Assembly: GCA_007376805.1 (NCBI GenBank)
Contig: VMGX01000002.1
Span: 47,116 to 111,115 of the forward strand
Source of the DNA: Parcubacteria group bacterium Athens0714_16
Lineage (GTDB): Bacteria > Patescibacteriota > Minisyncoccia > Phycocordibacterales > 21-14-all-36-13
Length of the DNA: 64,000 nt
Reading direction: 5' to 3'
Below, piece by piece: positions 56,488 to 61,874 of the stretch (position 1 is the first letter of the stretch; the number at the start of each line of letters is the position of its first letter). The notes under the pieces are model-generated. The model made no database searches. It was not told the DNA's origin and worked only from the letters and a program-made list of their open reading frames with translations. The position numbers and the translations under genes are program-made.

Positions 56488-58679
56488 CTAACCTTGTGTT
56501 AAGAAATATGAACGAATACAAAAAATCACTAAAAAAGCGGAGGTAATAATCTTGTTTTTGAAGGATTATCGCCCGCTTATTAAAGCGGTTTTTTTATTAA
56601 AGAAATTGGCGGAATGACTGGACGAATGAACATTGAAAAATGAATATTAGTTAAGTTTAAAAGCAGAATCCAAGTGTCTTTTTCGTGGCACTGGATTTTA
56701 AAGTATTTTTCATCTAGCGGAATAGAAATATTCCATAGAAAATAAGTTTTATTAAGTCCCGCGTGATTTAATAAAAAAATTGTGGTTTATGTAGTTCCTA
56801 ACAGGAAATACATAAGGGCGTATGGTGGATGCCTTGACTCTAAGAGGCGATGAAGGACGTGGCATGGCTGCGATAAACTTCGGGGAGGTGCCTAGCAACC
56901 TTTGATCCGAAGGTTTCCGAATGGGGTAACCCATTGTGACAAACTCACAATACTGAATTTATTCAGTGCATACCTGGGGAAGTAAAACATTTCAGTACCC
57001 AGAGGAAAATAGAACAATAGTTATTCCCTTAGTAGCGGCGAGCGAAAAGGGAAAAGCCCAAACCGAACTCTTTTATTAGGGCTCGGGGTTGTAGGACGTT
57101 AATATCATATTTATATGAAAGAAGTTACAAATGTGTTAGATAGTTGAACAAGCTGGAAAGCTTGGCCCCAGAGGGTGATAGCCCCTTAAACGAAATTTTA
57201 CACACTTCTTTGTTAATGTTCCTGAGTATCTCAAGACACGAATGGCTTGAGAGAATCTGCCGGAACTAACCGGTAAGGCTAAATACTCTTAGAGATCGAT
57301 AGTGAACAAGTACCGTGAGGGAAAGGTGAAAAGAACCCCGGAGAGGGGAGTGAAATAGACCTGAAACCATATGTCTACAAGGAGTCGGAGCAGAACTCTA
57401 CTGAGTTCTTTAAATATGTTTTTTAAAATTTATAATTTATGGATTTTAAAATTAGAGAATTGAGTAGAGTTTCTGCGACGGCGTGCCTATTGAAGAATGA
57501 GCCAACGAGTTTACATGTACTGCTTGACTAAGTCCCGAAAGGACGGAGTCTAAGGGAAACCGAGTGTTAAAAGCGCGTTCCGCTTTATTGCGGGTGTAGT
57601 ATATGTAAGACCCGAAGCCAGGTGAGCTACCCATGATCAGGGTGAACTTTGTCGAAAGACAAAGGGAGGCCCGAACCGTTTAGCCGTGCAAAACTATCGG
57701 ATGAATTGTGGGTAGGAGTGAAAAGCTAATCGAACTTGGTAATAGCTGGTTCTCTCCGAAATAGCTTTAGGGCTAGCGTTTAGTTTATCTTTTGGGGGTA
57801 GAGCACTGGATGGTCTGGATAGGAGGCAACTTCACTAGACCAATCAAACTCCGAATACCAGAAGCCACTACTAAACAGTCAGACTACGGGGGCTAAGCTC
57901 CGTCGGTCAAAAGGGAAACAGCCCAGATCTCAAGTTAAGGTCCCTAAATTTACATTAAGTGCAAATAAGGAGGTGGAATTTCTCCGACAGCGAGGAGGTT
58001 GGCTTAGAAGCAGCCATCCTTTAAAGAAAGCGTAACAGCTCACTCGTTAAGAGATTTTGCGCCACAAATAATCGGGGCTAAATGTGATACCGAAACTGAG
58101 GATGTCATCACTTTATTGTGATGGCGTGGTAGGAGAGCATTCCGTTCTACTGTGAAGCCAAAGGGGTGACCCATGGTGGAGTGTACGGAAGAGATAATGT
58201 TGGCACGAGTAACCACAATTCCACTAAGAAAGTGGAACGCCGAAAGATCAAGGTTTCCTTGGCAATGTAAATCATCCAAGGGTTAGTCGGTCCTAAGGTT
58301 ATGACGAAAGTCGGAGCCGATGGACACACGGTTAATATTCCGTGACTTTCATTTATTTCGATGGGGTGACGAAGTTTAGTATGTTTGGCGCATTATTGGA
58401 TTTGCGTCTACTTTGTGAGGAAGGTGCTTAGGCAAATCCGGGCACCTGACTTTAATGTCAATTCCAAGCGAGGCGGAGAACCTGAGATTCGTCAAAGGGA
58501 ATCAAACAAAGCAAGCTTCCAAGAAAAACCTCTAAGGTTAAATAAATGAAAACCGTACCGAAAACCGACACAGGTGATCAGGTCGAGAAGACTAAGGCGA
58601 ATGAGTGAGTGTTCCCCAAGGAACTCGGCAAAAAAGCAGCCGTAACTTTGGAATAAGGCTTTCCAGCTCCAATTTTGGG

Positions 58680-58950
58680 AGTAAAATTAAATTATGAATT
58701 ATGTTTATCTTATTCAAAATGATTTTGATGGAGAAATATATATTGGACAAACTTCTGATATAAAAAGAAGGTTGGCTGAACATAATAATAAATGTCAAAA
58801 AGTTTACCACTAAAAAACGGTAAGTGGATAATTATTTATCTTGAAATATTCAGAAATAAAAAAGATGCACAAGAAAGAGAAAATAAATTAAAACAACATG
58901 GTGGTGGTAAAAAAGAATTACTTAAGCGACTAAGATATAGTTTGCTTGAG
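58680..58950 (+). other. 271-nt insertion in the terminal loop of a helix-63-equivalent hairpin
   Basis: Closed by the 17-bp helix CCAGCTCCAATTTTGGG (58663-58679) with CCCAAAATTGGAGCTGG (58951-58967). Lacks the AUAUAGUC group I signature. Confidence 0.6.
58694..58935 (+). pseudogene. frameshifted GIY-YIG nuclease gene inside the 23S insertion
   Basis: Frame 1 reads MNYVYLIQNDFDGEIYIGQTSDIKRRLAEHNNK (GIY-YIG N-half, stop at 58813). The C-half KWIIIYLEIFRNKKDAQERENKLKQ continues in another frame from about 58792, with no stop until 59028 in rRNA sequence. The shift lies near an A-run. Confidence 0.65.
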
Positions 58951-59159
58951 CCCAAAATTGGAGCTGGACGCAGCGAAAGTACCCCTGGCGACTGTTTACC
59001 AAAAACACAGCTCCCTGCGAACTCGTAAGAGGATGTATAGGGGGTGACGCCTGACCAATGCCAGAAGGTTAAACATGAGGGGTCCAAGAAGTTTTACTTT
59101 TTGGGCTGGATTATGTAAGCCCTGGTGAATGTCGGCCGTAACTATAACGGTCCTAAGGT

Positions 59160-59611
59160 TCTCGGTTTAATTTTTAAATTGAATCGAGAAAGACTAGGAC
59201 TGTTATAATAAAAAATTGGTAACAAAAGATTGCTGCCTATTTCACGTAAAGTGAAATGTCTATAAAATTTGACCATATGCTGGGAAACCCGCGATGTATC
59301 CTTAAGTACTCGTTTAATTTTTTAAACAGTAACAAACTTTAAGGTGATGCGGAAAATCAGCAGGAAAGTTTGAATTCTTTTTAATTAAATCTAGAATTCA
59401 AAATCCTCAGAGACTAAAAGTCAGACTAAGTTGTCTACAAAAACAATTTAGAAAATATAGTCCGAACTTTGTGGCGACACAGAGAGTGAGACAGAAATGT
59501 TCTTACCTTGTATCTGCGTTCATCTGCGCCTGCCCCGTAGCTAGAGCATAGCTCTATGGTACTGGGGTATAATTTGCGTAGATCTGCGTTTGTTACAAAG
59601 TAACAAAGTTG
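59160..59611 (+). mobile_element. group I intron (ORF-less) at the E. coli 1917-equivalent position
   Basis: Interrupts CCTAAGGT|...G|AGCGTAATTCC. The 5' exon ends in U and the intron ends in G. Contains AGACTAAAAGTC and GAAAATATAGTCC core-like motifs. Confidence 0.75.
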
Positions 59612-60181: not shown

Positions 60182-60503
60182 TAAAGTAAATTTACAAATT
60201 TAAATCGGGGTGCGACGTGAGAGATTGCGTAGCCTGGAATCAAAAACATATTTGTAGGAGAATATGTTCAGATTAAAAATATTGGCTTATAACGGTGGAC
60301 TCCATCATAAAAATTTTTATTATGGACAATACCGTGGGAAGTCTTCGTTTTCAAAAACGAATGACCCCGTAGAGACTGATGCGAAAGCAGAGAGTATTTC
60401 ATAAACGAAATGCTAATACGCCAACTCCTAACCACAATAAATTAATTGTGGAAGGAAGAAGATATAGTCCGATCCTTCTGGTAACAGAAGAAAAATGACA
60501 TTG
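60182..60503 (+). mobile_element. group I intron (ORF-less) at the E. coli ~2500-equivalent position
   Basis: Interrupts GGCACCT|...G|CGATGTCGG. Contains GAAGATATAGTCC. Shares blocks with the next intron. Confidence 0.75.
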
Positions 60504-60659
60504 CGATGTCGGCTCGACTTATCCTGGGACTGGAGAAGGCCCCAAGGGTTTGGCTGTTCGCCAATTAAAAAGTCACGTGAGCTGGGTTCAGACCGTCGTG
60601 AGACAGGTTGGTCTCCTATCTGTTGCAGGCGTCGATTTTTGAGGAGATTTGCTTCTAGT

Positions 60660-61486
60660 AAGTAATTGCTACTTCTCATAGTAATATGGGATGACAATTT
60701 GGCTAATAACGGTGAAATCTTCATAGGTTATCTGGCAGTGGAAAAACAATTAGCGCGGTCCGTTAATTGTGATAAAATTACTTGAGGACCAGATAATTTT
60801 TAAGACAATACCGTGGGAAGTCGATCTAAAATTAATTTAGCATATATCGCTGGTTTTCTTGATGGAGATGGAAGTTTAATGCTCCAAATAAAGAAAAGAA
60901 GTGATAACAAAAGAGGGATTCGTTTTATGGCGACAATATGTTTCTATCAAGATAGTCGTCACGATGAACCTTTATATTGGATAAGAAAAGAATTAAACAT
61001 AGGGTATGTTTCAAAAAGAAAAGATGGAATTACTGAATTGAGGATCAATGGATTTGAGAGAATTGAAGAAATTCTTAAAAATCTTATTCCTTATATAAAA
61101 TTCAAAAAGATACAAGCAAAAGCATTATATGATTGTTGTAAAATTTTACAAAAACCAATGAATGCTTTAAAAGAAAGTGATTTCAGAAAACTTGTAGATT
61201 TGATTCTTACAATTCAAAAAGAAAACTATGTTTCAAAGAAAAAGAAAGACAAAGAAGAATTGCTAAAACTATTAGATTTGACCCCGTAACGACTTGTTTT
61301 GTTCAATCTAATTTGAACAAACGGACTTGTATAATTTCGGAAGGTTCTGAAATATTTTAGGACAGATTTATACTTGTAATACGCCGACACCCTAATCAAC
61401 ACAAGGTTGGTGGGTGAAGATATAGTCTACACTCCTAGAAATAGGGGATAAATTCTAAATCAATTAAAAAGATTAAGAAATATGTG
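60660..61486 (+). mobile_element. group I intron with LAGLIDADG ORF in the sarcin-ricin loop region
   Basis: Interrupts CTAGT|...G|ACGAGAGGACC. Contains GAAGATATAGTCT. The ORF is inserted between the blocks CAATACCGTGGGAAGTC and TGACCCCGTA. Confidence 0.75.
60813..61289 (+). CDS. single-motif LAGLIDADG homing endonuclease (I-CreI-like)
   Basis: 158 aa. LAYIAGFLDGDGSLMLQIKKR motif and overall I-CreI-like layout. GTG start within a conserved intron block. Confidence 0.85.
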   Translation: MGSRSKINLAYIAGFLDGDGSLMLQIKKRSDNKRGIRFMATICFYQDSRHDEPLYWIRKELNIGYVSKRKDGITELRINGFERIEEILKNLIPYIKFKKIQAKALYDCCKILQKPMNALKESDFRKLVDLILTIQKENYVSKKKKDKEELLKLLDLTP

Positions 61487-61874
61487 ACGAGAGGACCGAA
61501 GTGAACTGACCTCTGGTGTACCTGCTGTCGTGCCAACGGCACCGCAGGGTAGCTATGTCGGGAAAGGATAACCGCTGAAAGCATCTAAGCGGGAAGCCAA
61601 CTCCAAGATAAGAAATCATTTAAGATTCCTGAGAGATGATCAGGTTGATAGGCCTTAGGTGTAAGCACAGCAATGTGTTCAGCCGAGAGGTACTAATTTA
61701 ATCAAAATTACTTCCTGTTGGGAGCTATGTGAGCTACAATATTTTATTTTTGTGGATTCTTTATTCCGCTAGGTGAAAAATACTTTATCTGTTTTTATAT
61801 ACTTAACTATTATTTTTTTTCTGAACTAAATTTTTTGAATTTAGTGCTTTTTTGTTCTTTTTAAATATTTAATT

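Follow-up and report, generated by a model that had tools for sequence, protein, structure and literature searches.

What occupies positions 56700-61786 of the 64,000-nucleotide (nt) stretch of contig VMGX01000002.1 analysed here (the window; Parcubacteria group bacterium Athens0714_16), how much of it is inserted sequence, and does it depart from what is known of its group? The region is one bacterial 23S ribosomal RNA (rRNA) gene, interrupted by three group I introns, enlarged by hairpin inserts in two helices and closed by a long processing stem. We are confident that it represents a 23S gene of an ultra-small groundwater bacterium of the Parcubacteria group, within the candidate phyla radiation (CPR, or Patescibacteria), with the introns, inserts and transcription unit described below, from which the introns would be spliced and which RNase III would likely process. 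It is probably the sole 23S copy in the genome. The gene and its inserts are as follows.

56802 to 61720, plus strand: 23S rRNA gene (Rfam RF02541, 1968 bits), with exons 56802-59159, 59612-60181, 60504-60659 and 61487-~61720
57396 to 57466, plus strand: AT-rich hairpin expansion of helix 25, 71 nt, after Rfam model position 583; candidate intervening sequence
58662 to 58968, plus strand: hairpin cassette in helix 63, with perfect 18-base-pair (bp) arms (58662-58679 and 58951-58968) around a 271-nt loop (58680-58950)
58694 to 58950, plus strand: GIY-YIG (UPF0213-type) pseudogene within the cassette, disrupted by indels of +1 near 58796-58800 and -2 near 58811
59160 to 59611, plus strand: group I intron 1 (L1931), 452 nt, after E. 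coli U1931, no open reading frame (ORF); Rfam Intron_gpI 62.2 bits
59511 to 59595, plus strand: block of ATCTGCG heptamers within intron 1, 85 nt, missing from the homologous intron of the relative L002
60182 to 60503, plus strand: group I intron 2 (L2500), 322 nt, after E. coli U2500, no ORF; Rfam 47.9 bits
60660 to 61486, plus strand: group I intron 3, 827 nt, after E. coli U2656 in the sarcin-ricin loop; partial Rfam match of 27.5 bits
60813 to 61289, plus strand: intact gene for a single-motif LAGLIDADG homing endonuclease of 158 amino acids (aa), in the P6 loop of intron 3; Pfam LAGLIDADG_1, 1.8e-11

The match to the Rfam model LSU_rRNA_bacteria begins at 56802 and lies far above the threshold of 50 bits. 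In blastn searches, E. coli rrlH aligned to the region in eight collinear blocks spanning E. coli positions 23-2884, the last of which (E. coli 2657-2884) corresponds to 61487-61697. The Rfam alignment stopped at 60656 because the covariance model cannot bridge the 827-nt intron; this 3' end was not accepted, and the E. coli alignment places the end at ~61720. With the introns removed, the gene was 68% identical to its E. coli counterpart in a MAFFT alignment, and the functional rRNA cores were all intact (blastn and MAFFT against E. coli). In the same alignment, the spliced gene had 71 extra nt at E. coli position 550 (helix 25) and ~263 extra nt at positions 1714-1772 (helix 63). The 58-nt difference at position 277 is mostly an E. 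coli-specific deletion, as just 19 nt are extra there relative to the Rfam model. Weak Rfam matches to MIR2599 (57384-57481), c-di-GMP-II (59795-59863), sau-5971, YrlA and Trp_leader were rejected as chance, being far below threshold and lying on AT-rich hairpins, an exon or a terminator.

A first-pass annotation of the window had described much of this anatomy. The breaks in the Rfam model alignment and in the blastn alignment fall where it had placed the intron boundaries, and its intron sizes of 452, 322 and 827 nt proved exact in the E. coli-numbered alignment. Its AT-rich helix 25 expansion of ~70 nt measured 71 nt by both Rfam and MAFFT, the 271-nt helix 63 loop is of precisely that length, and the ~1.9 kb that it had assigned to inserts compares with a total of ~1.94 kb.

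We then characterized the three introns. The Rfam search returned three separate Intron_gpI matches within the gene, which we judged against the gathering score of 50 bits. Intron 1 passes this score, with P3-P9 at 59214-59484 (model positions 1-253), a guide sequence candidate at 59235 and several 4-bp candidates for P1. Intron 2 matches over the full model length (E = 9e-11) and falls just under the curated cut-off. It has a 6-bp P1, in which exon GCACCU pairs with the guide GGGUGC and a U.G pair occupies the splice site, as well as a 4-bp P10. The match to intron 3 covers the 3' part only (61270-61448) and is below the gathering score because the 477-nt ORF in P6 splits the core. According to local alignment, the P3-P9 core of intron 3 is collinear with that of intron 2, and the two share the J8/7-P7 motif GAAGATATAGTC and 19 identical nt across P5'/P4'/P6; for P1, intron 3 has no candidate longer than 4 bp. 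All three introns follow an exonic U and have G as their last nucleotide (GGU/UCUC...GUUG/AGCG, CCU/UAAA...AUUG/CGAU and AGU/AAGU...GUG/ACGA), and the exons flanking intron 3 rejoin as CUAGU/ACGAGAGGACC in the sarcin-ricin loop. The introns, all at universally conserved sites, would be expected to self-splice and religate the exons.

The protein encoded in intron 3 scored 45.2 bits against LAGLIDADG_1, above the Pfam cut-off of 23.1, and carries the motif IAGFLDGDGS with its acidic residue. It is 96% identical to protein P0001. Among its 2848 homologues, all of the named ones belong to Patescibacteria; coverage was 96-100%, and the homologues are mostly of 155-163 aa. The nearest solved structures are those of the homodimeric enzymes I-MsoI, I-CvuI and I-CreI. 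A predicted I-CreI-type enzyme would cut the DNA of an intron-less sarcin-ricin loop (...GCTTCTAGTACGAGAGGACC...) and thereby copy the intron in.

To what extent do these inserts come and go? L002, a groundwater contig from Hainich, a different aquifer, shares the synteny from fusA to the 23S gene with the window, and its 23S exons are 99-100% identical to those described here. Five introns and four other inserts interrupt its gene. Intron 2 is not among them: the L002 sequence runs on without a break at the position that corresponds to 60181/60504 of the window, and this empty site confirms the intron 2 boundary. By contrast, intron 3 is common to the window and L002 (96%) and is also found in L005 and L006. 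The extra introns of L002 lie at ~L1917, at L2262 and between E. coli positions 2584 and 2656. As near-identical exons are accompanied by different inserts, the inserts are discrete and have been recently gained or lost, and the two loci provide natural filled and empty alleles that show this gain and loss to be ongoing. The window's gene is the poorer relative in this pair and its insert density is not exceptional, contrary to the first-pass annotation, which had considered the density notable; in the published survey of CPR 23S genes, inserts reach 16 per gene (Tsurumaki et al. 2024, PMC11270868). Its assignment of the DNA to a CPR bacterium held: the best matches of both the intron-encoded protein and the helix 63 ORF are in metagenome-assembled genomes (MAGs) of Patescibacteria/Parcubacteria.

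The two remaining inserts are not introns. Each is a hairpin with a long closing stem, the form characteristic of 23S intervening sequences. The helix 25 insert, placed by MAFFT at 57402-57472, is a near-perfect hairpin of ~40 bp (-44.7 kcal/mol) and sits at a classical intervening-sequence site. At the same site L002 has a different hairpin, of 162 nt. The possibility that the insert belongs to a repeat family was rejected, as further copies were not found.

The insert in helix 63 carries coding sequence, as had been annotated, but the gene is decayed rather than intact. The ORF starts at ATG 58694, and in the three-frame translation a GIY-YIG domain emerges only once two frameshifts are repaired (Pfam GIY-YIG, 70 bits, 2.1e-19); a single intact frame does not encode it. 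Alignment to the intact copies of L009-L011 (84% protein identity) placed the indels: one A-run has gained an A, and 2 nt have been lost. The 78-aa ORF is 98% identical to an annotated protein of Parcubacteria group bacterium Athens0714_16, and the protein resembles the bare UPF0213 GIY-YIG proteins BH0048 and EF2693. Both frameshifts lie at A-runs. Sequencing error was nevertheless rejected as their cause, since the L007 and L008 assemblies are 100% identical to the window over the whole gene, frameshifts included; these assemblies may stem from overlapping read sets, such that the check is not fully independent.

To determine how widely the helix 63 insert occurs, we scanned species-representative genomes with an eight-sequence alignment, which yielded 31 loci. 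In 12 of these, from 12 species genomes, a GIY-YIG ORF occupies the same helix 63 position (E. coli ~1704/1770). The carriers are Nomurabacteria, Paceibacteria, Minisyncoccia, Saccharibacteria and Sungbacteria. Intact cassettes are present at helix 63 in L009-L011, L016 and L018-L032; the GIY-YIG gene is intact in L009-L011, L016, L018 and others, and decayed copies coexist with these. One metagenome copy of the cassette lies in a 16S hairpin (L017). In a gammaproteobacterial MAG (CAWKDC010000001.1; L038 and L040, ~1972-2274 in each), a GIY-YIG ORF is found in a helix 25 insert with a 22-bp stem in both rRNA operons. A stem of 18-25 bp brackets all but one of the rRNA-borne copies. Across 11 distinct variants of the cassette stem, 198 of 198 cells were paired and 9 of the 18 pairs showed compensatory double changes, as compared to 36-62% pairing in slid controls. 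The stem of the 16S cassette in L017 is similar to those found in helix 63, which makes the stem a part of the element rather than of the helix that hosts it.

These data suggest that the GIY-YIG cassette is a mobile intervening sequence that would be removed by RNase III. We further propose, tentatively and as a reading that falls somewhat short of probable, that the helix 63 insert is a copy of a distinct, unnamed mobile rRNA element. The element would consist of an 18-25-bp stem around a UPF0213-type GIY-YIG gene, would move as a unit between variable helix tips (23S helix 63, a 16S hairpin and gammaproteobacterial helix 25) and would have its stem kept by compensatory evolution for excision by RNase III. 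The GIY-YIG nuclease may drive the spread of the cassette.

Free-standing GIY-YIG homologues of 86-87 aa were also observed near ribonucleotide reductase genes in three Patescibacteria genomes (L012 6001-6264, L013 5001-5261 and L014 5001-5261), adjacent in one and one to two genes away in the others. Ribonucleotide reductase genes are known targets of homing endonucleases.

As to their fate, the helix 25 and helix 63 inserts would most likely be excised by RNase III without religation, or else be tolerated on the ribosome surface. We regard as unlikely the latter outcome, in which the mature 23S rRNA would retain both as expansion segments on its surface. Both inserts cap variable helices that are exposed to solvent, each folds into a hairpin of its own, and covariation in the stem would be equally selected if a stable hairpin kept the insert clear of ribosome assembly. 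Retention would, however, burden every ribosome with a costly 307-nt appendage that contains a decaying ORF. Moreover, helix 25 is the classical site of RNase III-processed intervening sequences, CPR genomes retain rnc (PMC12641178), and CPR rRNA inserts were found to be removed from transcripts in the work of Brown et al. (2015), as summarised in PMC11270868.

Another explanation is that the helix 63 cassette is a new kind of mobile element, either a self-splicing intron of unrecognised structure or a homing unit driven by the GIY-YIG protein, and not a passive intervening sequence. The stem and ORF do travel together, in 23S helix 63, the L017 16S hairpin and gammaproteobacterial helix 25; the same site is occupied in the 12 species genomes of several CPR classes; and the coexistence of intact and decayed copies is as in the life cycle of homing endonucleases. 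The protein, on the other hand, is a bare 86-aa UPF0213-type GIY-YIG domain without a DNA-binding extension, its close homologues are ordinary free-standing genes, and the cassette matched no intron model in Rfam. In addition, GIY-YIG inserts in CPR rRNA genes were judged to be outside a homing context (PMC11270868). Overall, an intron or homing unit at helix 63 seems to us improbable, and a hairpin intervening sequence subject to excision by RNase III remains the preferred reading of the cassette. Finally, an assembly chimera or dead rRNA pseudogene, in which the inserts would be artefacts or signs of degradation, would be in keeping with the one assembly join in the window (37 nt of fusA missing at 52736) and the frameshifts at two A-runs in the helix 63 ORF, but can be dismissed as very improbable given the full identity of L007 and L008 across the gene, the shared synteny and 99-100% identical exons of L002 from another aquifer, and rRNA functional cores that are intact without the introns.

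The join at 52736 splits fusA into two ORFs: 37 nt that are present in L002 are missing, and contig L007 starts 33 nt before this point. The break thus most likely arose where the source record was joined in assembly, and fusA would not be a true pseudogene.

Other considerations weigh against the processing proposed for the gene. Introns 2 and 3 score under the curated Rfam threshold. Intron 1 lacks an unambiguous guide sequence, and P1 is of just 4 bp both there and in intron 3. The splicing and excision of the inserts are predicted from sequence, and RNase III is proposed to cut the helix 25 and helix 63 hairpins by analogy. The L1931 intron of Simkania was reportedly unspliced; therefore, splicing cannot be assumed. 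With respect to the cassette stem, the arms were picked by best complementarity, which biases the percentage of paired positions but not the compensatory pattern.

The heptamer block of intron 1 belongs to a wider set of repeats. The window contains 9 occurrences of arrays of ATCTGCG/CGCAGAT heptamers spaced at 10 nt, where 0.06 would be expected. In L002 and L003, a palindromic element of 150-168 nt made of the same heptamers is present in four 23S helix tips, including those of helices 45 and 63, with copies 87-99% identical, and it is also found in helix 63 of L005 and L006. The positions are:

8967-9007, 26901-26931, 31555-31592, 52091-52131 and 59512-59588 of the window: heptamer arrays, the last within intron 1
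3266-3427, 4278-4445, 4680-4829 and 5368-5534 of L002, 2464-2671 of L005 and 2824-3031 of L006: palindromic heptamer elements

The element resembles a small mobile repeat with the tips of rRNA hairpins as its targets. The ATCTGCG family may colonise these helix tips in sister genomes by a route related to that of the GIY-YIG cassette. The CGCAGAT array at 52091-52131 lies in frame inside elongation factor EF-G (fusA ORF 51859-52755), where it contributes 14 translated residues. It falls in a loop that we take to be ~18 aa longer than its counterpart in E. coli EF-G. A repeat element thus appears to be tolerated within an essential gene.

Is the gene transcribed on its own? Its flanks contain the following features.

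56460 to 56487, plus strand: sigma-70-type promoter candidate, TTGACA-16 nt-TATACT, matching the consensus at 11 of 12 positions, the best in 55800-62300
56573 to 56598, plus strand: terminator-like leader hairpin with a T-run, between the promoter and the 23S gene; putative leader or attenuator
56700 to 56726, plus strand: 5' arm of the outer processing stem, paired with 61760-61786
61760 to 61786, plus strand: 3' arm of the outer processing stem, paired with 56700-56726 (27 bp)
61875 to 61983, plus strand: tRNA-Lys(UUU)-like gene in which ~30 additional nt separate the 5' acceptor strand from the D arm; Rfam tRNA 37.4 bits, model positions 8-63 only
61990 to 62065, plus strand: tRNA-Ala-like gene with the alanine identity pair G3:U70 and an anticodon loop of 8 nt, UUCGCAAA; Rfam tRNA 58.8 bits, ARAGORN anticodon 'cgca'
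62225 to 62255, plus strand: intrinsic terminator closing the 23S-tRNA unit, with a 9-bp stem and a T-run

According to Rfam, there is no 16S or 5S gene in the 64-kb window, of which 2.2 kb are visible downstream of the 23S gene, and there is no 5S match in 61780-62260 even at E <= 10. Within these 64 kb the gene is accordingly unlinked, with neither a 16S nor a 5S gene adjacent to it, as the first-pass annotation had stated. The private promoter that it had placed at 56460 is the best candidate in the region, and a stem does bracket the gene. L002 carries an equivalent TTGACA...TATACT at the matching relative position, despite diverged surroundings, and has a non-homologous hairpin and T-run at the equivalent place in its leader. 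Promoter, T-run hairpin and processing stem therefore follow one another in L002 as they do in the window despite the divergence in sequence, which supports a private promoter with a structured leader. The outer stem is extended by an inner helix (56780-56809 with 61707-61740) whose pairing runs into helix 1, and the joined flanks fold with -94.3 kcal/mol (z = -15.4). This flank helix of >50 bp most likely frees the pre-23S rRNA through RNase III. The proposed unit would thus run from the promoter through the leader, the 23S gene and two tRNA-like genes to the terminator, separately from 16S and 5S. The terminator hairpin is also present 3' of the tRNA downstream of the L002 23S gene.

Transfer RNA genes do follow in the place of 5S, as annotated, yet both are aberrant. 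ARAGORN called the tRNA-Lys only once ~61882-61912 had been deleted. The 5' acceptor strand of this gene is not where it would normally be. A complementary GGCGGTA is found ~30 nt further upstream, separated from the rest of the gene by a piece that holds a small hairpin, ATCTGC-TCTGG-GCAGA. The gene is either disrupted or encodes a tRNA with an unusual insert. The 8-nt anticodon loop of the tRNA-Ala-like gene could mean that the gene is decaying and has gained one base, or that the tRNA has a naturally expanded loop.

Between the tRNA genes and the terminator, the segment 62085-62205 is richer in G+C (45% over 62066-62215, as compared to 29-36% in most protein-coding parts) and has a predicted three-way-junction fold, for which the z-scores are weak (plus strand, -2.1; minus strand, -2.7). 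A divergent 5S or rRNA fragment was considered and rejected in view of these scores, the lack of an Rfam match at E <= 10 and the lack of similarity to E. coli 16S, 23S or 5S. The segment was not similar to any fetched locus, and L002 has no counterpart of it at the corresponding position; it may be an unrecognised small RNA. Downstream of the rRNA-tRNA unit, a serine recombinase fragment (zinc-ribbon domain only) and a pyrimidine-dimer DNA glycosylase gene occupy 62924-63442 and 62206-62733, which hints at the remains of an integrated element beside the tRNAs.

How does this gene compare with known systems? With respect to linkage, Patescibacteria, for which this arrangement is typical, are a named clade among bacteria with unlinked rRNA genes (Brewer et al., 10.1101/705046), and the window's 23S gene, at least 56 kb from any 16S, does not differ from these. 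With respect to inserts, Tsurumaki et al. (2024, PMC11270868) found them in 82% of CPR 23S genes, with a mean total of 1327 bp (SD 1112); the ~1.9 kb in the window is within this spread. Their survey described group I introns clustered in the 3' half of the gene and LAGLIDADG_1 as dominant at fixed 23S sites, among them 1931 and 2657. Position 2657 corresponds to one of their numbered sites 23IS12-14, and introns at 23IS13 and 23IS14 were stated to be previously unreported in bacteria. They also described GIY-YIG ORFs confined to inserts other than introns, short inserts at known RNase III intervening-sequence sites and a related CPR enzyme, I-ShaI, that was shown to be active. The window's gene, from the same group, has the same clustering of introns in domains IV-VI, a single-domain LAGLIDADG_1 gene, a GIY-YIG ORF that lies outside the introns and a short helix 25 insert; it was not individually dissected in that survey (PMC11270868), but there is no categorical difference. 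As published work (Brown et al. 2015; Tsurumaki et al. 2024; Brewer et al.) already describes both CPR 23S inserts and unlinked genes, the gene, though accurately delineated, is ordinary for its group: its sites, both endonuclease families and its insert density are already catalogued. It is a well-resolved example of how CPR bacteria tolerate many selfish inserts in a 23S gene that is usually single, and the true rRNA sequence, on which phylogeny and probe design depend, can be recovered only with exact insert coordinates of this kind.

The enzyme of intron 3 resembles I-CreI, I-MsoI and I-CvuI in having one motif and ~160 aa and in residing in a 23S group I intron (phmmer 1e-13 to 1e-9). A tandem-linked I-MsoI construct was matched with a phmmer E-value of 7.8e-25, both copies aligning. 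The three known enzymes reside in the L2593 intron. By contrast, the intron 3 enzyme is at L2656, in the sarcin-ricin loop, and both its target and its activity are predictions. Intron 1 occupies the same site, after U1931, as the L1931 introns of Thermotoga, Simkania and Synechococcus (PMC1995217), and its group I core is above the Rfam threshold. These known bacterial introns are of 654-700 nt and contain a LAGLIDADG gene, whereas intron 1, at 452 nt, has no ORF and instead holds the 85-nt heptamer block.

The hairpin inserts are most similar to the helix 45 intervening sequence of Coxiella burnetii with its S23p gene (PMC4990558) and to the Salmonella-type intervening sequences of helices 25 and 45. 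These too are sporadic hairpins at variable helix tips with a long stem suited to RNase III and, in some cases, a small ORF. The helix 63 cassette differs in its position, in helix 63 and not helix 25 or 45, and in carrying a GIY-YIG (UPF0213) rather than an S23p (PF05635) gene; its cleavage by RNase III is a prediction. It also differs from the GIY-YIG ORFs of the CPR survey (PMC11270868), which were sparse and had no preferred site, in that the helix 63 tip is occupied recurrently and with a conserved bracketing stem. The one modest addition to what is known is that this GIY-YIG hairpin cassette is now defined, with a hot spot at helix 63 and a stem that covaries: together, the recurrence and the covariation turn loosely described non-intron inserts into a defined element with a testable processing mechanism.

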